Of a stretch of 34,806 bases of DNA, positions 13,600 through 29,042 are shown piece by piece. A model generated the notes under the pieces. It was not told where the DNA came from. It saw only the letters and a program-made list of their open reading frames with translations, and did not search any database. Positions within the stretch are counted from its first letter, which is position 1; each line of letters starts with the position of its first letter. Where the stretch lies: positions 1 to 34,806 of the IMG/VR virus record IMGVR_UViG_3300030450_002974; one strand, written 5' to 3'. This DNA is from a virus. Lineage: Duplodnaviria; Caudoviricetes. The position numbers and the translations under genes are program-made.

Positions 13600-16245
13600 A
13601 TGGCCAAAGTATTACCTGCAGGAGCAAATGTAAATTTAGGGTTAGGTGAAGACCCAATGGATAGACTTCTAAAAACTATCCAAGTAGCATCTCAAGCACA
13701 AGGTGTTATGAATCAAGCAACACTCCAACGTGATAGACGTGAAGCTATTAAATTAGAATCAATGCAAAAAATGATGGCTTATCAACTTTCAAATATGGAT
13801 TCTCAAAACACTACCAGTATTGAAGGGACTAAAAATTCTTTAGTTGAATTAAGAGACCAATTTAAAAAAGAAAACCCAAGACTTTCAGAGGATATCGATG
13901 TATTTTATGGAGCTACATATGCTTCACAGATAAAACCTATTGAAGAAGTGCATACTCGTTTTAATCGAATTAAAGATAGATTACACCTTTCTGTTGAAAA
14001 TCTTAATCAAAATGTTCAAGCTTTACCTGATAACACGATTATAGCATCAGATGAATTAAAATTTAAAGATGAGTTAGCTGGCCTGCAGGATGTTTTAAAT
14101 GAATACAAAATTAACTCTGGCGAGTTTTCTAAATTTCTTCCAGATTTAAATTCAAGCCTATACTCAGAGGTTGTTGCCGCTAATAACTTAGCAACAGTGC
14201 TTCCAGGAGAATTGAAGGGTCTTTTTGATGATTATGAACAAGATTTAGCTGGTATGTTAGGTAGGGGCGAAATCTCTCTGGAATACTATAAAGCTGCACA
14301 CAATAAATATTTTACAGCAACTCAAGGCAAAGTTAACTCAAAAATTATACCTAGAATTTCTGGAGAAATAAATGCTTTATGGAAAGATTATCAAGAGCCA
14401 AACGCATTTAAGGAAGCAATTGCATCAGGTACAGTGCCTCTTCAAAGCGATGCTATTAAAAACCAAAAGCATTACTATGATGAAGCTAGTGGAATATATT
14501 ATTTTGAGGGGCAACCATTAAATTCTGGTAAGTATGGAGACAAAACTTATGATGACAAGAATCCTGATGAATGGTTAGCTAAGGCTAAAGAAAATGCACA
14601 AAAAACACTGGAAAATATTTATTTAAATGATATTAAGGACAAAATAACTGAACAAGATGCGCTTTATAAAGAGTATGTCCTAGGTAGAGACGGTGAAGCA
14701 TCTTCTTACGCAACTGTACTAACTAATAGCCAAAAATGGCCTTGGCAAGAAGCAACTTCAGGAGGGTTTATTGAAGACATCCTTGATGGTGATAAAGGAA
14801 AAGACTCAATACAATTAGAAAATTTAGATGATTTTACAAAGTTAGGTATCAATGTACCAGAAAATTTAACTTTAGACGATTTAAACTCTATGGAAGCCGA
14901 GATTACAAAAATGGCTGAGGATGAATCTGATGGTGGCAATTTTATTAAACTTCAGTCTCTAACAAGAGCTAATAATGCCATAGGAAATGCTAAAGCAAAA
15001 TTAGAAGCAAGTGAAACAAAAAAAAGTGAAACAGATGAATCAGGAATGACTTATTCTTCTATAACAGATTTTGTAATAGATTATGGAAAAGAGTATGGAG
15101 ATGAAGCTGCAGGGGTTGCCACTATTGGTGTAGGAGCTTACAATATACCTAAAGTTAACAAAGCTATTAAGTTAGCTACAAGTTATATAACTAAAACTTT
15201 AGATTTACCTAGTGACAGTGTAATAGATTTATTTAACGATGCTGATTTCAAACAAGTAAGTAAACAATTGGCATCTATAGATAAAAGAATATTAGCATTT
15301 AAAAAAACCCTCCCTGAAGGAGCTTCTATGGACTTTAAAGTTGGTTCTAAAAACTTTATTACATATAAAGCTTTATTGCAAGAAAAGAAACAAATAGTTG
15401 AAAATTCTAAACATGCTAAAAACTTAATTACTAAAATGGAAGCAGGCCATTTTCCTGATATGAAAGTTGATGTTGATATAGTAAAGCCCGAACCATTTAA
15501 TATGAAAAAACCGCCTAAAGGAGCAGGGGCAGAAGCTATTGCTGAATATAATAAGGCCAAAAAACTTCATCAAATAAAAATGAGAGAATATAACCTGAAT
15601 TTATCTTCTAGTAAGTCGCAATTTAGAAAAAAAATTATGAATTTCTTAATAGAATCTGATAAATGGGATGTAAATGCAATAAAAAGAACAGTAACTAAAA
15701 GTGTAAAAGAAGCTTATAGAACTCCTAAAGATTTATATAATGTTTTAACACAAGGGGCTGTAAAAGTTGGTCCATTAGATGCAGCCATTCATGCTTGGTT
15801 TTTAATGCCTGAAGATGCTGAAATAGGATATAAAGTATCAGCGGCAGGGGTTGCGGGTATGACAACAAAAGGAATTATTAATTATGCTAAGAAGAAAGGC
15901 ATTTCTCCATTTTTAAATGACAAAAAATTAACAAGTAAATTAGGTAAATTTTTAATAAAACAAGCTCCAGGCACTATGGCTAAAATGGGTTTTAAAGGTG
16001 TAGCAGGGGCAGTTGCAGCTGGAAGTGGTATTGGCTCAGCTATATCCGCAGCTATGCTGGCTTGGACATTAAACGATATTAGAATACTTGTAAAACAATT
16101 TCCTGAAATAAGGCAAATGCTTTCAGAATCTATTGCAAGACAAGAATCTGGTGAATTAGATATGCCTAACAAAGAAGAAACAGAACAACCTCCTGTAATA
16201 AACGAACAAAATTGGATGAAACCATACTCTCAGCAAGGAGAATAG
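13600..16245 (+). CDS. Large internal virion (ejection) protein
   Basis: 881 aa, helical; C-terminal hydrophobic hairpin (GVAGAVAAGSGIGSAISAAMLAWTL); GGAGG SD. Confidence 0.55.
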   Translation: MAKVLPAGANVNLGLGEDPMDRLLKTIQVASQAQGVMNQATLQRDRREAIKLESMQKMMAYQLSNMDSQNTTSIEGTKNSLVELRDQFKKENPRLSEDIDVFYGATYASQIKPIEEVHTRFNRIKDRLHLSVENLNQNVQALPDNTIIASDELKFKDELAGLQDVLNEYKINSGEFSKFLPDLNSSLYSEVVAANNLATVLPGELKGLFDDYEQDLAGMLGRGEISLEYYKAAHNKYFTATQGKVNSKIIPRISGEINALWKDYQEPNAFKEAIASGTVPLQSDAIKNQKHYYDEASGIYYFEGQPLNSGKYGDKTYDDKNPDEWLAKAKENAQKTLENIYLNDIKDKITEQDALYKEYVLGRDGEASSYATVLTNSQKWPWQEATSGGFIEDILDGDKGKDSIQLENLDDFTKLGINVPENLTLDDLNSMEAEITKMAEDESDGGNFIKLQSLTRANNAIGNAKAKLEASETKKSETDESGMTYSSITDFVIDYGKEYGDEAAGVATIGVGAYNIPKVNKAIKLATSYITKTLDLPSDSVIDLFNDADFKQVSKQLASIDKRILAFKKTLPEGASMDFKVGSKNFITYKALLQEKKQIVENSKHAKNLITKMEAGHFPDMKVDVDIVKPEPFNMKKPPKGAGAEAIAEYNKAKKLHQIKMREYNLNLSSSKSQFRKKIMNFLIESDKWDVNAIKRTVTKSVKEAYRTPKDLYNVLTQGAVKVGPLDAAIHAWFLMPEDAEIGYKVSAAGVAGMTTKGIINYAKKKGISPFLNDKKLTSKLGKFLIKQAPGTMAKMGFKGVAGAVAAGSGIGSAISAAMLAWTLNDIRILVKQFPEIRQMLSESIARQESGELDMPNKEETEQPPVINEQNWMKPYSQQGE

Positions 16246-16249
16246 CTAT

Positions 16250-19200
16250 ATGCCAGTAAGTCCTCAAAGTGCTATAGAACAGCTAAGAGAACGATTTCCT
16301 CATTATAAAGACTTATCAGATGAGCATGTTTATCGTATAGCAAGAAGAGATTATCCTGACGCACCAATACAAGATTGGCCAGAATCTGGATATGTTGCCC
16401 CTAAACAATCTAGCCCTGATGACATATACCTTGACAAGACTGATGAAGATACTTTTTTAGATTACTTTAATTGGGGTATTGATGAAGACAGTTCTTACTT
16501 GGCAAGGCTTGCATATACTCGTTCATTACAAGGTATGGCTTCAGACTTTTTAAGAGGGGAAGCAAAATTCAAACTTGAAAGACAGCCCGCTATTTGGGAA
16601 GAAGCTGTAGCTGGAATATTGGCGTATGCACAACCTTTAGATTTACTTAGCCTGTATGGAGGAGGTAGTATAGTTGGTAAAGCTTTTGTTAAATCTTCAC
16701 TAGGGAAAGGTGCTACAGACTACCTAACAAAAGGTATCATTAAAATGTCTCCTAAAGCAAAATATAGCGAAGTTAGTCGTGCTGTTGCTGGTATTTTAGG
16801 TTCAGAGATGGCTTATGTCCCTTACGAGGGAGCTAAAGCCAATATGTTTGCAAGAACGCTTCATATGCAAAATCCTGGTATGGACCCACTCACACCTGAA
16901 GAAATTCAAAAAGAAACTTTTGCAGGAGTTGTTCATGGTGGAGTCATGGGTGTTTTAGGTGGTAGCGCAAGGCCCTTTTTAGCTGCTAAACACGCAGGAG
17001 TATTAAGACAAATAGATAAACTAGAGCTTAAAAAAGCACTCACTTCTGGGCAACAGAAACAATTATTTTCATTAAAAAATAAAGTAAAATATACTGGAAA
17101 CTTAGGGCAATACGCTAGTGAAGTAGCTGGACTAACAGCTGGTGATGTGGCTGGAACTGCAGTGGCATATGGGCAAATGAAATCAATGGAAGAATTAGCG
17201 GTTACAGTAGCTACTATGGGAGGCTTTGCAGGTGTAACAAGACTTACAAGTTACGGGTTAAATAGGATTGTTGATGAACCCTTAACAAAAGCTTATGAAA
17301 AATATGAAATTGAACATCAAAAAAGGCAAAAAGAGTTAGATGCTGAAGATAATGTTATAAGAGATATGCATGAAAAAGCTAAATCACAAGACGATAGCGC
17401 TATTGAATCAAGAGCTATGGATGATGTAGAGAGTGATTCAGCCCCATCATCCAATAAACCCAGAATTGCATGGGAAGATACTCCTGAATATAAAGAATAT
17501 CAACAGCTTATTAAAGATAAAGAAAGTTTTATGTCAATGAGAGACAAACTAAGAGACGAAGATGCTTTAGACTTTCTAAAAGAAAAATATAACATAGCTT
17601 TAAGAATCGCAAATTTTATAGATAATTCTGGATATAATAAAGCTAAAGATGGGGTTAATGGAATACATGAGTGGTTAAGGGATGGTGCTAGGAAAATTGA
17701 AAATTCTCTTGAACAAAAAAAAGGTGATATGCCATCACAAATTCAAAACTTGCAATTCAAATTAAAACAAGAGTTTGATATAGAGACAATTAAAGTTGAC
17801 GATGGTACTGGGAATTTGATTGATGTTGATATTTCTGAGGCGCAAAAATATATGCCTGGAGATACTCCTATAGAAAAACAAACAAACCTATTAAATAAAG
17901 CACAAGAACTATATAACAATGTTGAGCAAAGTCAAACTAAAAGAATCTCTAAAAAGTATGAGCAAAATGAACGAGAAGTAATTTCTCTGAGCAAAGACAA
18001 AAATGAAATACAAAAGTCTATTGATGATTTAAAAGGAAGATTAAACGAAGATATGCCAGAAAAAAGACGTAATGAACTGGCGACCGAATTATCTGAACAC
18101 GAAAATTCTTTAGCCTTTTTAAATGAAATAGATGAGGAAATTAATAAGATAAACAAAAGTAATTCTTTAACTACTAATTCTAAAAATAAGTATACGTTAA
18201 ATTTTGATTTATTAAAAACATTTATATCAACACAATATGCTGATTTACCTGTAAGACCCGCAACTAAAAAATCAAGAGCAAAAGCATTAATTTCATTTAT
18301 TAAAAAAGTTAACAAGGAGACAGATTCTAAATTAACAGCGCTTAATGAGAATAGACTTGTGAAACTTGCCAGAGAAATGTTTAAAAGTGATGCTTCAGCA
18401 TTAACTGATTTTTTAAAATTTTTAGACAAAAAAGGTGCTTTACCTAGAGAGTTGCAAGGTATTGGTGATGATATATTTAAAGTATCAAAAAAACAAGGGG
18501 GTAGAACAACCCCTAGAGGGCTATTAACTAGCGATGTAAAAGGTGGTGGCGGGCTAGACATTGTAACAAGTAAAACTGGTACAAGAAAAAATATTGACTG
18601 GTCTGATACTAAAAGTAAACATTCTAATTTAGATACAAAATCTTTACTAAAAAAAGTAATTAAATTAGTTCAAGACAAGTCTAATAAAGTTATAGCATAT
18701 ATGAATAATAAAAAAGTAGAATATGAGTCTATATTTTTTATAAAAAAACAGGAGGGTGATGATTTTATAAATGTTGCTCTTTCGGGTGATACGGTAACAG
18801 AGTTATCAAAACAACTTTTTGGCGGTAAAGTTACAGGAAAAAGTTTTAGAAAATCGTTTTCTACTTGGGTTGACAATCAATATGGTTCAACAAGTGACCA
18901 ATTTCAATTAGTGGATTATTTTGGATTGACTCATAGAGATGTTAATAAAAAAATATATCAATCTTATCAATCTAAATTTTCTTCAACTGGAGATGGGATG
19001 CCTACAGGAAAATATTTAGATATGTTTAAATCTCTTCAAAAAGAATATCAAGATTTAATATTTAATAGTGTTACTTCTGAACAAATGAAAAAAATGAAAA
19101 ATGCACAACTTAAAAAATATGGCTTAACAGAAGGTAACTTAGATTTAGCAGGAGCAGTTTCTATTTACAGGCTTAAAAAAGGTTTTGAAAATATTGCGCT

Positions 19201-19783
19201 TATATCAAAAGCTGCTGATAAAGATGGATTTATTTCTATTGAACCTACAAATGTTAAGGGAAGAAAGGCTGATGTTTATAAAATACATGAAAACGTATTA
19301 GAGGCAACTTTTAGGACAATGTCAGAAGGTTCATCAAGAATAATTGAACAGTTTGGAAATATTGAAACACAAAATATATTAGGTATACCTATATCTAAAA
19401 AATTCGCTCCACTTGAAGAGCTTTTACAAAAAGCTGGAGTTATACAGTATGCAACACAATTGGAAGCCAAAAACCAAGAATTTAGCTTTACAAAGAAACA
19501 AATAGATGTATTCAGAGAAAGTTCTTTAGAAAGAAACGCAATAGATAATAAAAAATCTTTAAGAGCTAAAGCTAAAATATTGTTAGCTGGAAATATGAAT
19601 AAAGAGGTTACACGAAAAAATTTAGGAAACAAAGCTTATGAAAGTAAGTTGAAAGATGTTCTACTTAAGAGTAAAATATTAACAAAAGATGAAATTAACA
19701 GCATGAAATCAATTAGCTTACAGGACGATATAATTGATGAATCTGTTTTACAAAGATTAATTAAACATACAAATTGTAATTAA
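16250..19783 (+). CDS. Large internal virion protein with an embedded tyrosine-recombinase-like domain
   Basis: N-terminal LRERFPHYKDLSDE motif and Gly/Ala hydrophobic helices. Residues ~665-910 carry GGR...LLTSDV, SKTG, GKSFRKSFSTW, GLTH...Y..Y. Confidence 0.6.
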   Translation: MPVSPQSAIEQLRERFPHYKDLSDEHVYRIARRDYPDAPIQDWPESGYVAPKQSSPDDIYLDKTDEDTFLDYFNWGIDEDSSYLARLAYTRSLQGMASDFLRGEAKFKLERQPAIWEEAVAGILAYAQPLDLLSLYGGGSIVGKAFVKSSLGKGATDYLTKGIIKMSPKAKYSEVSRAVAGILGSEMAYVPYEGAKANMFARTLHMQNPGMDPLTPEEIQKETFAGVVHGGVMGVLGGSARPFLAAKHAGVLRQIDKLELKKALTSGQQKQLFSLKNKVKYTGNLGQYASEVAGLTAGDVAGTAVAYGQMKSMEELAVTVATMGGFAGVTRLTSYGLNRIVDEPLTKAYEKYEIEHQKRQKELDAEDNVIRDMHEKAKSQDDSAIESRAMDDVESDSAPSSNKPRIAWEDTPEYKEYQQLIKDKESFMSMRDKLRDEDALDFLKEKYNIALRIANFIDNSGYNKAKDGVNGIHEWLRDGARKIENSLEQKKGDMPSQIQNLQFKLKQEFDIETIKVDDGTGNLIDVDISEAQKYMPGDTPIEKQTNLLNKAQELYNNVEQSQTKRISKKYEQNEREVISLSKDKNEIQKSIDDLKGRLNEDMPEKRRNELATELSEHENSLAFLNEIDEEINKINKSNSLTTNSKNKYTLNFDLLKTFISTQYADLPVRPATKKSRAKALISFIKKVNKETDSKLTALNENRLVKLAREMFKSDASALTDFLKFLDKKGALPRELQGIGDDIFKVSKKQGGRTTPRGLLTSDVKGGGGLDIVTSKTGTRKNIDWSDTKSKHSNLDTKSLLKKVIKLVQDKSNKVIAYMNNKKVEYESIFFIKKQEGDDFINVALSGDTVTELSKQLFGGKVTGKSFRKSFSTWVDNQYGSTSDQFQLVDYFGLTHRDVNKKIYQSYQSKFSSTGDGMPTGKYLDMFKSLQKEYQDLIFNSVTSEQMKKMKNAQLKKYGLTEGNLDLAGAVSIYRLKKGFENIALISKAADKDGFISIEPTNVKGRKADVYKIHENVLEATFRTMSEGSSRIIEQFGNIETQNILGIPISKKFAPLEELLQKAGVIQYATQLEAKNQEFSFTKKQIDVFRESSLERNAIDNKKSLRAKAKILLAGNMNKEVTRKNLGNKAYESKLKDVLLKSKILTKDEINSMKSISLQDDIIDESVLQRLIKHTNCN

Positions 19784-19793
19784 AGGTTATTAA

Positions 19794-22700
19794 ATGGCGA
19801 TAAAAGGGGCATGTATTAATATTATAGAATCAGATAATGATTCTTTACATATATCTAAATTTAGTTTAGAGCAACTAAGAAAAGATAAAGAAATTCCAGC
19901 ATCAGACTCTGTTAGTTTTTTAGAAACTTTAGGTGTCAAAGATGGGGCTATAGATAATATACAAAGTGAAAAAACTATTGATATGGCAACTCAATTTTTT
20001 AAAGAATACAAGCAAAAGATTACTGATTCTAATTATGATTCTCCTTCTTTGAGAGACATAGCTGATGAAACAATCCCTGGGTTTAGAGGGCTTAAGCTAA
20101 TTGCCCCTGTTTATTATGTGCTTCAAAAGGGAGGAAAGTCTTCCAAAAAATTAGCTGACAAATTATTAGATTTTGATGTTGTATATACGAGAGATAAAGC
20201 TTTTGCTGATGAAACTATAGACCAAATTGCAAAAGTTTTAGGAAAAGATGTTAAGAATATGAATTTACTAGAGCCTGAAATGAGAAAGCAAAAAGGAAGA
20301 GTTTTGTCTGGTGCTGAAACAAAAGCAACAAGAGCTTTTGATTTAATAAACCCTAAAACAAACAAATTATGGTCTATGAAAGATAAAGGGTTTGGTTCTT
20401 TAGATAGTTTTACTAAAAAACATATTGTTGCTAGAGAATATCATACACAGATGACTAACTTTTATTGGAAAAGAATTAAAGCCGAAATGAAACTGAAATC
20501 AACTAAGTTCCAATATGAAGAGTTTTTGGCTGATTTTGATAAAAAATACATACAAAACTATATGACTAGAGCTGTTAGTAGAGAAGTGTTAATGGACATA
20601 CAAAAACATTCAACTGCAAGCCCTGTTATTGTTAAAATTGCAAACGAAAGATTAAAATCTAGAGCTTCTGAACTTGCTTCTAAAAAGTTTAAAAAAAGTA
20701 AAAACCCAGATAAATGGGAAGCAGAATATGATAAAAACTTAAAAGATGCAGATTTATTAAATTCTATAAAAGAAGAAGCAGTTGATATAATGACTTACAA
20801 TCCAGCCAGGGTTGTTAACAAACATTTCAAAAAAAGAGGGATTTTACTTCCATTTGAAACAGAAATTACTACTTTGTTTGGTAAAAAAAAGAAAGTACAA
20901 TCATACGAAAGTGACTATAATAGTGTTATGGATAGGTATTCTACAGTAACATCTAAATTTATATCTACAACAAAGTTTTTTCCAGAGTTTACTAATTTTG
21001 GAACTAGGTATAAAATATCAGGTGGAGCAAAGTCTAAGCTTTTTGATATGCAGAACTCTTCAAACAAACAGCATCAGTATATAGCTAATCATATTGATGA
21101 ACTTTTAGGGCTATCTGCTAAAGATTCAAATGCTATGACTAATTTCTTATCAACAACTAGTACGCTTTCAGCTGCTACAGGGCTTTCTTCTCCTACTTCG
21201 GGTATTAAAAACTTACTAATCACTATACCTAGAACATTAGGAACTTTTCCTATATTAAATACAGCTAGAGCTACACTAAATTTATTTAACAGCTATGGCG
21301 AACTTATGACAGACGCTAGAAGAAAAGGCTTTACTACATACCAAACAAAGACATTAGCCTTACAAGATAAAGCTATAAAGCTGCCATTTAATTTAGGCAC
21401 ATTTAGTATGGAGAGCTTATTTAAAGTAAACTTAATGACACAAACAGAAGGTATTGGTCGTGTGGCACAGGTACAGACTGGGCTAATGACATTTGAGCAG
21501 CAGTTAGCTAAGAGCCATGGTGTTAAAAATATTTTAAATAAAGGTGGGAAAGATAAGGTTAGAGACTTTTGGAAAAATGTCTTCAAACTATCTGATGATG
21601 AAATTGAGTTTTTATTTGATAAAGAAAGCTATAAAAGAATCCAAAATGGTTTAGCTGACACAGATATGACAGGCAAAATGGATTATATAAGAGCTAAAGT
21701 TGCTCATTACTCTCATGTATCAGTATCTGGAGGAACAGGTGCGCAACTTCTTCCGCATTGGATGAGCGGTAAATATGTAAAACCTATGTCTCTATTTTAC
21801 CGTATGGCATACTCTACCACTTTTGATATGGCTCAAAATCATATAAGGCCAATATTTAAACATCGTAATTTAGCTCCTTTAGCAAAAGCAACTATGGGTA
21901 GTGCTTTATCTGGTTGGGCTTTGTGGGCCATGTACGATGCTTTATTTGACACCAAAAATCCTACAGAAAATGAAGATGCATTAACTCAGATAGCTTCATT
22001 CTTATGGAGAGCTGAATTTTTACAGTTAGGCTCCGACCTATTGAATCCGTATGGAGCAAACATGTATTCCAAAAAAAGCCCTTTTGACTTCTTAGATTTT
22101 GATGACCAAATGATGGCTAGCTCTTTCAATCCAGTCTACGGAACTGCTGTTTTTAGGAATCTATCTTCAGCGGCTTCTCTATTTGGACACACCTTTTTAC
22201 CAAGCTTAGGACTGACTGACGAGAGGAAGTTTAGAGGACAGGCATTAGATGATTTTCTTAGCAATACTGTTGTTATTTATGCTCAATACAGAAAAAACTT
22301 TCAAGAACCATTTGGCTCTGGTTGGAAAAATGACAAACTATATAAAACGCAGCAAGAATTTTCTACTTATGCAAGAAGATGGAAATCTGAAAATAACTAC
22401 AAACAAACTCATATCCATGGACAAACAACAACTACCCCATATTATAGGAGTTTAAGAAACGCATTTTATAATGGTAGCCAAAAAGATTTTAATAGAGCTT
22501 ATTGGGGAGCATACAATTATATTATTACAGATATGATGAAGAACTACAGAAGAACTGGGAAAGGGGTTGATATGGCTGAAATACACAAAAAAGCTATGTC
22601 TAATTTAAATAGGTCTTTAAGCTCATATTCTGTCTCATCCTTATCTGAAACTTTTGATGTTAAGAATGGTGGAATTATACCTGAAAAAGAATTTCAGAAA

Positions 22701-22841
22701 TACCTAAAAGATAGAAAACTTTTAGATAGGTATAATAAATCTAAAAGAGAGTTTGAATACAGAAAAAGAGTTCTTGTTAATCAAGCTAGCAACATTCAAA
22801 ATAAAAGAAAATACTCAGTTATGTATGACCTATTTGAATAA
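19794..22841 (+). CDS. Large internal virion (ejection) protein, C-terminal type
   Basis: 1015 aa, helical; SGIKNLL motif, hydrophobic ALSGWALWAMY; last + strand gene of the module. Confidence 0.55.
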   Translation: MAIKGACINIIESDNDSLHISKFSLEQLRKDKEIPASDSVSFLETLGVKDGAIDNIQSEKTIDMATQFFKEYKQKITDSNYDSPSLRDIADETIPGFRGLKLIAPVYYVLQKGGKSSKKLADKLLDFDVVYTRDKAFADETIDQIAKVLGKDVKNMNLLEPEMRKQKGRVLSGAETKATRAFDLINPKTNKLWSMKDKGFGSLDSFTKKHIVAREYHTQMTNFYWKRIKAEMKLKSTKFQYEEFLADFDKKYIQNYMTRAVSREVLMDIQKHSTASPVIVKIANERLKSRASELASKKFKKSKNPDKWEAEYDKNLKDADLLNSIKEEAVDIMTYNPARVVNKHFKKRGILLPFETEITTLFGKKKKVQSYESDYNSVMDRYSTVTSKFISTTKFFPEFTNFGTRYKISGGAKSKLFDMQNSSNKQHQYIANHIDELLGLSAKDSNAMTNFLSTTSTLSAATGLSSPTSGIKNLLITIPRTLGTFPILNTARATLNLFNSYGELMTDARRKGFTTYQTKTLALQDKAIKLPFNLGTFSMESLFKVNLMTQTEGIGRVAQVQTGLMTFEQQLAKSHGVKNILNKGGKDKVRDFWKNVFKLSDDEIEFLFDKESYKRIQNGLADTDMTGKMDYIRAKVAHYSHVSVSGGTGAQLLPHWMSGKYVKPMSLFYRMAYSTTFDMAQNHIRPIFKHRNLAPLAKATMGSALSGWALWAMYDALFDTKNPTENEDALTQIASFLWRAEFLQLGSDLLNPYGANMYSKKSPFDFLDFDDQMMASSFNPVYGTAVFRNLSSAASLFGHTFLPSLGLTDERKFRGQALDDFLSNTVVIYAQYRKNFQEPFGSGWKNDKLYKTQQEFSTYARRWKSENNYKQTHIHGQTTTTPYYRSLRNAFYNGSQKDFNRAYWGAYNYIITDMMKNYRRTGKGVDMAEIHKKAMSNLNRSLSSYSVSSLSETFDVKNGGIIPEKEFQKYLKDRKLLDRYNKSKREFEYRKRVLVNQASNIQNKRKYSVMYDLFE

Positions 22842-26758: not shown

Positions 26759-26782
26759 ATTTTCTCCTTTTCTCTTTAATGT

Positions 26783-26876
26783 TGTGGGAGACGTGAAAGG
26801 CGGAAAAGAACAGTGGTAGAGAGGACCACACAATAAAACCGCCTATGTATTCTCACGATATACAAAGTCTCCCACA
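26783..26876 (-). ncRNA. Candidate structured RNA (multi-stem, unassigned)
   Basis: Nested complementary pairs UGUGGGAGAC/GUCUCCCACA, CGUGA/UCACG, AGGCGG/CCGCCU, GUGGU/ACCAC in a GC-rich intergenic gap. Confidence 0.6.
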
Positions 26877-26880
26877 TAAT

Positions 26881-27036
26881 TTATCTCTTTATGTGTCTAT
26901 AGACTGTTGCAGGTGAAACTCCAACAATTCTACTTATTCGTTTACCTTTCATACCAAAACCATACAAGGTGTTGATAAGAAGCTCTCTAGGCCATCCAAC
27001 TTTTTTGTACCTTCTTTTAGAATGGGATGTCTGCAT
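26881..27036 (-). CDS. Small helix-turn-helix DNA-binding protein (51 aa, not in track)
   Basis: MQTSHSKRRYKKVGWPRELLINTLYGFGMKGKRISRIVGVSPATVYRHIKR*; HTH pattern; GGAGGAG SD. Confidence 0.75.
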   Translation of the reverse strand: MQTSHSKRRYKKVGWPRELLINTLYGFGMKGKRISRIVGVSPATVYRHIKR

Positions 27037-28205: not shown

Positions 28206-29042
28206 TTACTTTTTCTTAAAAAAAGGCGGTTTACAATGGTCTAGAAATCTACAATAATTGCAATTCCAATCCTCTACAGGACTGAATTTTTCTCTAAACA
28301 TTGGAAGACCTTTTTTATGTTCTTCGTTTACGTTAGTCCAAAAGGCTTTTGCTCTTTCAAGCATAACCATTGGAACTTGGTAAGACCTCATCTGTGAATT
28401 GTCTTTATTGTAGTAGTACAACCACATACTATCAAGTCTACCAAATTTTTCTTTAATAGCTAGCCCATAAGTACCTAACTGCAATTCTTGGTGTACAGAA
28501 GCATTAGGGTTAGGATTTTTCCAGCCAAACTTTCTTGACCAGGAATAGCTAGCCATAGTTTTAAAATCAATTAAATGAACACTACCATCATCTTCACTAA
28601 CCGCCACCAAATCATAAAAACCTCTGACGTTTAAGGAAGTGATAAACACTTCACCTTCAATGTGATATTTAAAACTTTCTTTTTGTATATTATATATATC
28701 TTTTTCTTTACTATATATAGATTCTTCATATGTAGTATTACTACTTATAGTATTACTACTTATAGTATTACTATATATAGTAGTATCGGAAAGGGCTTGC
28801 TGTAAATCATCATGTACAATTGTACCTAATCTCATAATTCTAGATGATTTTTCATTAGCTGGATTTGTAGTAGGGGCAAGCTCAATAGATTCGTAGTACA
28901 GCTTCCTTGAACAAGTACCCGCTCCAGAAGCATGGTAATGGCTTTCTTTACCAACATACCTTTCTTTGTAGTTTTCTTCGTTTTTTCTTACAATATGGTC
29001 GTTATAGATAGATTCTATATCAACAGGACATTTACTTTTCAA
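28206..29042 (-). CDS. Cas4-like PD-(D/E)XK exonuclease (four conserved Cys)
   Basis: ASGAGTCSRKLYY, GTIVH, GFYDL...IDFKT, QLGTY, CNYCRFLDHC; TTG start with GGAG. Confidence 0.85.
   Translation of the reverse strand: MKSKCPVDIESIYNDHIVRKNEENYKERYVGKESHYHASGAGTCSRKLYYESIELAPTTNPANEKSSRIMRLGTIVHDDLQQALSDTTIYSNTISSNTISSNTTYEESIYSKEKDIYNIQKESFKYHIEGEVFITSLNVRGFYDLVAVSEDDGSVHLIDFKTMASYSWSRKFGWKNPNPNASVHQELQLGTYGLAIKEKFGRLDSMWLYYYNKDNSQMRSYQVPMVMLERAKAFWTNVNEEHKKGLPMFREKFSPVEDWNCNYCRFLDHCKPPFFKKK
28709..28786. repeat. Palindromic 15-bp tandem repeat in an AT-rich patch; candidate replication origin
   Basis: TAGTATTACTACTTA at 28733 and 28748, TAGTATTACTATATA at 28763; CTATATATAG palindromes at 28711 and 28771. 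Confidence 0.7.

Follow-up and report, generated by a model that had tools for sequence, protein, structure and literature searches.

A tyrosine recombinase-like module without box I is predicted inside an ejection-type phage protein

Residues 649-910 of P0001, a large ejection-type phage protein, are predicted from a structural model to fold as a tyrosine recombinase (YR) module that consists of a core-binding (CB) domain and a catalytic domain without box I. We tentatively favor the reading that P0001 is an injected DNA clamp which would still nick and reseal DNA via Y906, without site-specific exchange. The P0001 gene was found in a stretch of 34,806 nucleotides (the window), a linear virus record (IMG/VR record IMGVR_UViG_3300030450_002974) that is 72% complete; the DNA occurs in metagenomes from marine or aquatic samples, with no RNA data set listed among them. 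All motifs and residue numbers quoted in a sequence-only reading of the window were found to be correct in the P0001 open reading frame.

The P0001 gene is located on the late strand, downstream of a gene for an SU10-type adaptor (PF24175), tail genes and three Cys-free genes (Table 1). Downstream of the adjacent 1015-aa gene, replication genes encoding resolvase, DnaB, Sak and a PD-(D/E)XK exonuclease are located on the opposite strand. The gene order around P0001 was the same in all 11 related loci printed and bears out the position in an ejection-type cluster that the sequence-only reading had assigned; the reading that the domain is fused to an ejection-type protein, and is not part of a lysogeny module, was likewise upheld. 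The near-complete relative G002 (44.5 kb) additionally harbors terminase, portal and major capsid genes. The 44,540-bp record of G002 (L027/L029) is labelled linear, but its ends overlap and it is therefore probably a complete circular map. Among relatives, the product of the ejection-type gene upstream of P0001 (window 13600-16245) varies from 378 to 919 aa with a conserved N-terminus.

P0001 is probably packaged into the head and injected together with the genome, as suggested by its gene position, Cys-poor composition and fast divergence. Alternatively, P0001 may not be ejected, or the module may act in the head or late in infection by organising packaged DNA or by binding host DNA or defence proteins. 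Ejection is deduced solely from gene order and composition, and in Pfam, PHROGs, NCBIfam and PDB no profile of a known ejection protein matched P0001. Against this alternative, which we consider unlikely, the gene follows adaptor and tail genes on the late strand in 11 of 11 loci, the protein is nearly Cys-free like its cluster neighbors, and it diverges far faster than the replication genes of the same distant loci (36-38% as against 71-97%). Furthermore, three proteins of sister phages contain the HExxH motif of zincins, which is typical of polyvalent proteins that are injected.

Table 1. Position of P0001, its predicted regions and neighboring genes in the window.
Feature	Position	Strand	Basis or remark
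Three Cys-free genes (294, 240, 881 aa) between tail genes and P0001	11974..16245	+	putative ejection-type cluster
1177-aa ejection-type protein P0001	16250..19783	+	N-terminal half of a protein fused (2,219-2,464 aa) in sister phages
Conserved N-terminal region, residues 1-345	16250..17284	+	homologous to N-termini of fused sister proteins
Variable acidic stalk, residues 346-644	17285..18181	+	low identity, net charge -17
Predicted YR core-binding (CB) domain, about residues 649-747	18194..18490	+	VIA Z 10.3/10.2/9.1; hhalign
Short variable linker in place of deleted helices and box I	18488..18517	+	pLDDT < 50; spacing
Predicted shortened YR catalytic core, residues 757-910	18518..18979	+	invariant residues; Cre overlay
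C-terminal extension	18995..19780	+	further invariant residues; only Cys of the protein (C1176)
1015-aa neighbor	19794..22841	+	C-terminal half of fused sister proteins; single Cys at residue 7

Identity to distant homologues was 41-62% per 100 residues in the N-terminal region and 16-23% for residues 401-700. The unit of CB domain, linker and catalytic core carries a positive net charge. Within the C-terminal extension Y957, K976, E980, H1013, E1018, E1026 and R1030 are invariant. An HExxH motif is absent from P0001, and a relic zincin at residues 990-1030 was unsupported.

AlphaFold modelling of residues 645-1045 with 23 sequences yielded a model with a pLDDT of 83 and a pTM of 0.70; a model obtained from three sequences was unusable (pLDDT 44.6). 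The former was compared by VIA-align with 48,161 chains, and the top 18 rows all belonged to the YR family; the YR chains listed comprise isolated CB domains, XerD, lambda Int, XerH, XerA, Brujita Int, SroF and MrpR, and neither TopIB nor protelomerase chains are among the rows listed. The CB domain matched 3nrw with a Z of 10.3 (rmsd 2.5, 92 residues aligned) and the CB domain of lambda Int with a Z of 9.1, and the catalytic part matched Cre (1pvq) with modest scores (Z 4.5, rmsd 3.7, 117 aligned, model 112-316); helical bundles can reach Z values of up to about 13 by chance, and weight is therefore placed on the uniform YR list and on the second domain. Both domains together were aligned over 200-233 residues in several YRs. 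Comparison of the CB domain with 12 YRs by hhalign gave a P of 0.007. ESM features assigned the whole domain and the catalytic part alone to Phage_integrase clusters (0.93 and 0.94), as one source of evidence with low shared-feature counts.

Other searches were negative. Foldseek gave no match in the PDB at E <= 0.001 (lambda Int, prob 0.72 at E 0.25) and no significant YR match in BFVD, where one unnamed match had an E of 1e-3 and a TM of 0.12. The domain did not match Pfam, PHROGs or NCBIfam, apart from sub-threshold Phage_int_SAM in 2 of 23 members, nor PDB sequences or annotated phages. Single-sequence hhalign to lambda Int, Cre and TelN was not significant; the E of 0.33 for TelN comes from a test that lambda Int and Cre also fail. 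The YR fold proposed from sequence was confirmed by VIA-align for the CB part and, more weakly, for the catalytic part, with no significant support from Foldseek.

The overlay of the catalytic part covers Cre 175-334 and begins at Cre 175-178, just past R173. Overlays on XerH, Tn1549 Int and the integron integrase end before Y906. Judged from the end of the XerH range (256-340), H895 would lie on XerH H335 if the alignment is ungapped; presumably, the same range-end placement applies to Tn1549 Int and the integron integrase, whose residue numbers we assume. Cre and XerH residues are numbered as in Table 3 of PMC10516654.

A profile search identified 19 proteins, all but one of which are near full length, and contig scans identified 9 and 16 loci. 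After deduplication and removal of noise matches 33 distinct homologues were kept; other cluster members were not added, and fragments ending before or inside the domain (P0019, L016, L019, L025) were left out. Shorter stand-alone relatives of P0001 were not found, only two fragments, and the nine matches of an all-protein profile search were family members, fragments or repeat-protein noise.

Ten columns between residues 645 and 945 are invariant in all 33 homologues: N651, G757, K775, F829, F830, R867, K868, F891, H895 and Y906. Counted over these sequences, which are related to one another, 5 of the 55 K/R/H/Y sites in residues 664-909 are invariant, and four of the five belong to the seven residues that the sequence-only reading had named (hypergeometric P = 5e-4). 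K775 (window position 18572), R867 (18848), K868 (18851), H895 (18932) and Y906 (18965) are also invariant across 10 lineage representatives which are 23-56% identical in the domain, and they hold site-rate ranks 7, 13, 8, 3 and 28 of 401. K775 aligns with lambda K235 and corresponds to Lys-beta, R867 and H895 correspond to Arg-II and His/Trp-III, and Y906 is the candidate nucleophile, located 11-15 residues past the His as compared to 9 in XerD. This last assignment follows from sequence order; Y957, which is likewise invariant (33/33) and located near Cre Y324 in the Cre overlay, is also a candidate. The catalytic part showed dN/dS values of 0.13-0.39 in seven of seven pairs; the CB domain is the fastest-varying part (0.22-0.79).

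Three further residues of the proposed active site were not conserved. Position 752 (18503-18505) is Arg in a single homologue, ranks 381 of 401 in site rate and lies within the short linker with a pLDDT < 50; position 903 is Tyr in 7 of 33; and position 864 is Lys in 17, Gln in 9, Ser in 4 and Thr in 3 sequences, so that the HxxR motif with His-II is missing. KxxR is a conserved motif of TopIB enzymes. Likeness to TopIB was thus not confirmed, with KxxR in about half of the homologues and a YR-type CB domain as the N-terminal part. The conserved half of the proposal, namely K775, R867, H895 and Y906, held; a complete active site did not.

The distance from P732, the Pro after the CB domain, to L758, the Leu of the post-box-I motif, is 25-31 aa in all 33 family members as compared to 50-71 in 12 reference YRs. 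About 25-30 residues, which comprise Arg-I and the helices ahead of it, are deleted family-wide. The remnant of the box I region is a variable and often Pro-rich linker, and Arg-I with its following Glu/Asp was not found there; in an alternative register, position 759 (L759) is Arg in only 10 of 33. The deletion appears to be the derived state because all YRs outside the family have box I. Because the Arg-I segment is deleted and His-II is absent, the P0001 domain is not a canonical YR enzyme, though it is YR-derived. An N-terminal helix at residues 276-300 (window 17075-17149) scored like a YR box I segment (z 4.5); it has Tyr and not Arg at the key position, and the score is probably due to chance. 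Residues 921-954, considered as a permuted box I, were not within the top five windows.

Sister phages carry alleles in which Arg-I is present. Five sisters (G006-G010) were reached by way of a replication-module gene; one more new contig, the sixth (L058), was left out. None of the five has a detectable match to P0001, yet all match its 1015-aa neighbor. At the P0001 slot each contains one Cys-free ORF of 2464, 2245, 2219 or 2297 aa or, in G010, of about 2,260 aa spanning the terminal repeat. The C halves of these ORFs are 22-25% identical to the 1015-aa protein (E 1e-11 to 4e-40), and their N-termini match the P0001 N-terminus (hhalign P 1e-4 and 2e-5). A YR domain is located mid-protein in all five; it matched 12 YRs with a profile P of 7e-6, and two sisters matched PF00589 with E 2e-5 and 4e-5, under the curated cut-off. 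Arg-I and Arg-II are invariant in the alignment of the sisters. At the His/Trp-III position, G007 and G010 have His, G008 has Gln, and G006 and G009 have Arg; read from the sequences, a Tyr follows 8-9 residues past this position in each, and His-II is present in none. G007 and G010 retain five of the six catalytic positions. A zincin HExxH motif follows the YR domain in three of the five, and its Glu is replaced by Gly in the other two; Pfam searches of the fused proteins gave no polyvalent-domain match. Compared directly by profile, the window domain matched the sister domains weakly (P 0.03-0.06), although at the expected position.

Since the P0001 N-terminus and the 1015-aa protein match the two ends of the fused ORFs, the two genes are most simply read, from sequence comparison, as a split allele, with box I deleted, of an ejection-type protein that occurs genus-wide and has a YR domain embedded in it. 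The fused alleles (L078-L083, G006-G010) are swapped into otherwise closely related genomes. In 32 of 33 homologues the only Cys of P0001 (window 19775-19777) lies 2-3 residues before the C-terminal end, the exception being truncated, and the only Cys of the 1015-aa protein (window 19812-19814) is located near the N-terminus in 15 of 15; the fused proteins contain no Cys. The gene split is flanked by one Cys on either side, and the two halves may be rejoined through a disulfide or metal link.

The fold and the basic charge suggest that the YR module would clamp incoming DNA as a single subunit, and one DNA strand may be nicked and resealed through Y906. K868 or another invariant basic residue may replace Arg-I, so that phosphotyrosine chemistry would be retained, and the role of P0001 would be to relax the genome or protect its ends during entry rather than to recombine fixed sites. 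We tentatively prefer this reading because the four catalytic positions are fixed under purifying selection and because K868 is fixed only in the clade that lacks Arg-I: all 33 Arg-I-less sequences have Lys directly behind Arg-II, as compared to His, Thr, Asn, Asn and Lys in the five Arg-I-bearing sisters. The presence of a YR domain in the orthologous protein of all five sisters, the negative search for a conserved target site and the fast variation of the CB domain also speak for it. Furthermore, passages of PMC4499138 treat the loss of Arg-I as a defect in electrostatics which is rescued by charge compensation in Cre and Flp. According to the same passages, Arg-I is nearly invariant in YRs and its neutral substitution almost abolishes the chemistry of Cre and Flp on normal DNA, which argues against nicking and resealing, as does MrpR, a protein that keeps Lys and Tyr while being dead.

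A close rival, possible though slightly less probable to us, is a catalytically dead DNA clamp like MrpR of SPbeta and SroF of phi3T. The injected module would wrap the genome, with the conserved residues only gripping backbone phosphate and holding the fold, and would protect it, tether it to the ejection conduit or control early genes. In agreement with such a clamp, all 33 sequences lack both the Arg-I segment and His-II, and His/Trp-III varies among the sisters (His in two, Gln in one, Arg in two). Both MrpR and SroF are among the fold matches (VIA Z 6.9 and 7.1). MrpR carries K169 and Y304 but has no recombinase activity, as stated in sections of PMC10516654, and SroF clamps DNA as a monomer according to parts of bioRxiv 10.1101/2025.11.27.690993. 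Against it, four of the six catalytic positions, including His-III and the nucleophile, are invariant over a tree of 7.2 substitutions per site, and MrpR, according to the sections cited, has lost His-III, unlike the P0001 family.

A more far-reaching proposal seems doubtful to us, namely that this phage group injects a ready-made YR-type enzyme within its ejection machinery, with an active site rebuilt without Arg-I by means of the invariant lysine. Its covalent phosphotyrosine link would relax or cap the genome before phage expression, and the Cys pair would re-link the halves of the split protein.

Ordinary site-specific recombination by the P0001 domain is unlikely. That the virion delivers a working recombinase or protelomerase which acts at a fixed site to circularise, cap or integrate the genome, all of which the sequence-only reading had considered, appears to us quite improbable. 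The modelled CB plus catalytic fold and the five catalytic positions of G007 and G010 are consistent with it, and no separate PF00589 integrase was found in the window or five related records. Box I is deleted, however, and the search for lox/att-like inverted repeats in the window gave three overlapping matches at one tandem duplication as compared to 0-7 in eight shuffles. None of the window matches is common to G002 or G003, and in none of the three did an inverted-repeat site exceed the shuffles; a long, tel-like palindrome was not found in the 72%-complete window. As lox/att/tos-like sites did not exceed chance, neither fixed-site circularisation nor hairpin capping received support. Integration likewise remained unsupported, with no integrated copy (host or prophage) in 185,579 GTDB genomes. 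Furthermore, the Sak annealing protein and PD-(D/E)XK exonuclease of the phage itself could circularise redundant ends.

Two other repeats were observed in the window. A 15-bp tandem duplication within the exonuclease gene (28732-28785) creates overlapping palindromes; the exonuclease has 278 aa in the window and 272-273 aa in relatives. An inverted repeat at 26778-26881, whose arms are separated by 74 nt, lies in a conserved part of the early/middle strand and is also present in L002 and L014; it had no match in Rfam and is possibly a structured RNA.

Compared to known tyrosine recombinases (lambda Int, XerD, XerH, Cre), the P0001 module shares the predicted CB and catalytic folds and has Lys-beta, Arg-II, His/Trp-III and Tyr in the same order. 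It differs by lacking the box I helices with Arg-I and His-II, by a longer loop between His and Tyr, and by being buried in a 1177-aa late protein for which no target site was found. TopIB enzymes and protelomerases belong to the same chemistry family, and nicking and resealing is what the best reading predicts; P0001 differs from them in having KxxR in only 17 of 33 homologues, a YR-type CB domain and no equivalent of Arg-I, and it gave no significant single-sequence hhalign match to the N15 protelomerase TelN.

Virion-delivered enzymes are known, namely the N4 virion RNA polymerase and polyvalent proteins. Phage-type polyvalent proteins and proteins of the N4 virion RNA polymerase type resemble P0001 as giant multidomain late proteins beside virion genes with a nucleic-acid enzyme domain, and P0001 is indeed a large multidomain protein adjoining late virion genes. 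The gp44 protein of Staphylococcus phage 80alpha is reported to be ejected and to bind and protect the genome (PMC7290940), as proposed here for P0001; it is not known to have a YR fold. Section 8 of Iyer et al. (2017; PMC5512222) describes the zincin as a hallmark domain of polyvalent proteins; its HExxH motif is shared by three of the five fused sisters, but not by P0001. The words 'recombinase' and 'integrase' are absent from the main text of that paper, the supplements of which may list such architectures. In the literature, mostly titles and first lines of abstracts of open papers, nothing was found on a YR domain inside an ejection protein.

MrpR and SroF share with P0001 the YR fold, an incomplete active site and possible action as a monomeric DNA clamp, but are described in the sections cited above as stand-alone lysogeny repressors with point losses. 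P0001 is not a stand-alone repressor gene in a lysogeny operon; its module is internal to a late structural protein, has lost a whole segment and keeps four conserved catalytic residues.

P0001 is thus a real, unusual variation on the theme of virion-delivered multidomain proteins and the most degenerate allele of its series. This natural allelic series at one locus comprises near-complete (G007, G010), His-III-substituted (G006, G008, G009) and box-I-deleted alleles (33 sequences); it permits a direct test of whether YR chemistry can run without Arg-I and also bears on a DNA-clamp role during podovirus genome entry. Ndc10 is another recruitment of the YR fold. Even if the module is dead, P0001 would represent a new recruitment of this fold, besides Ndc10 and the MrpR/SroF repressors.
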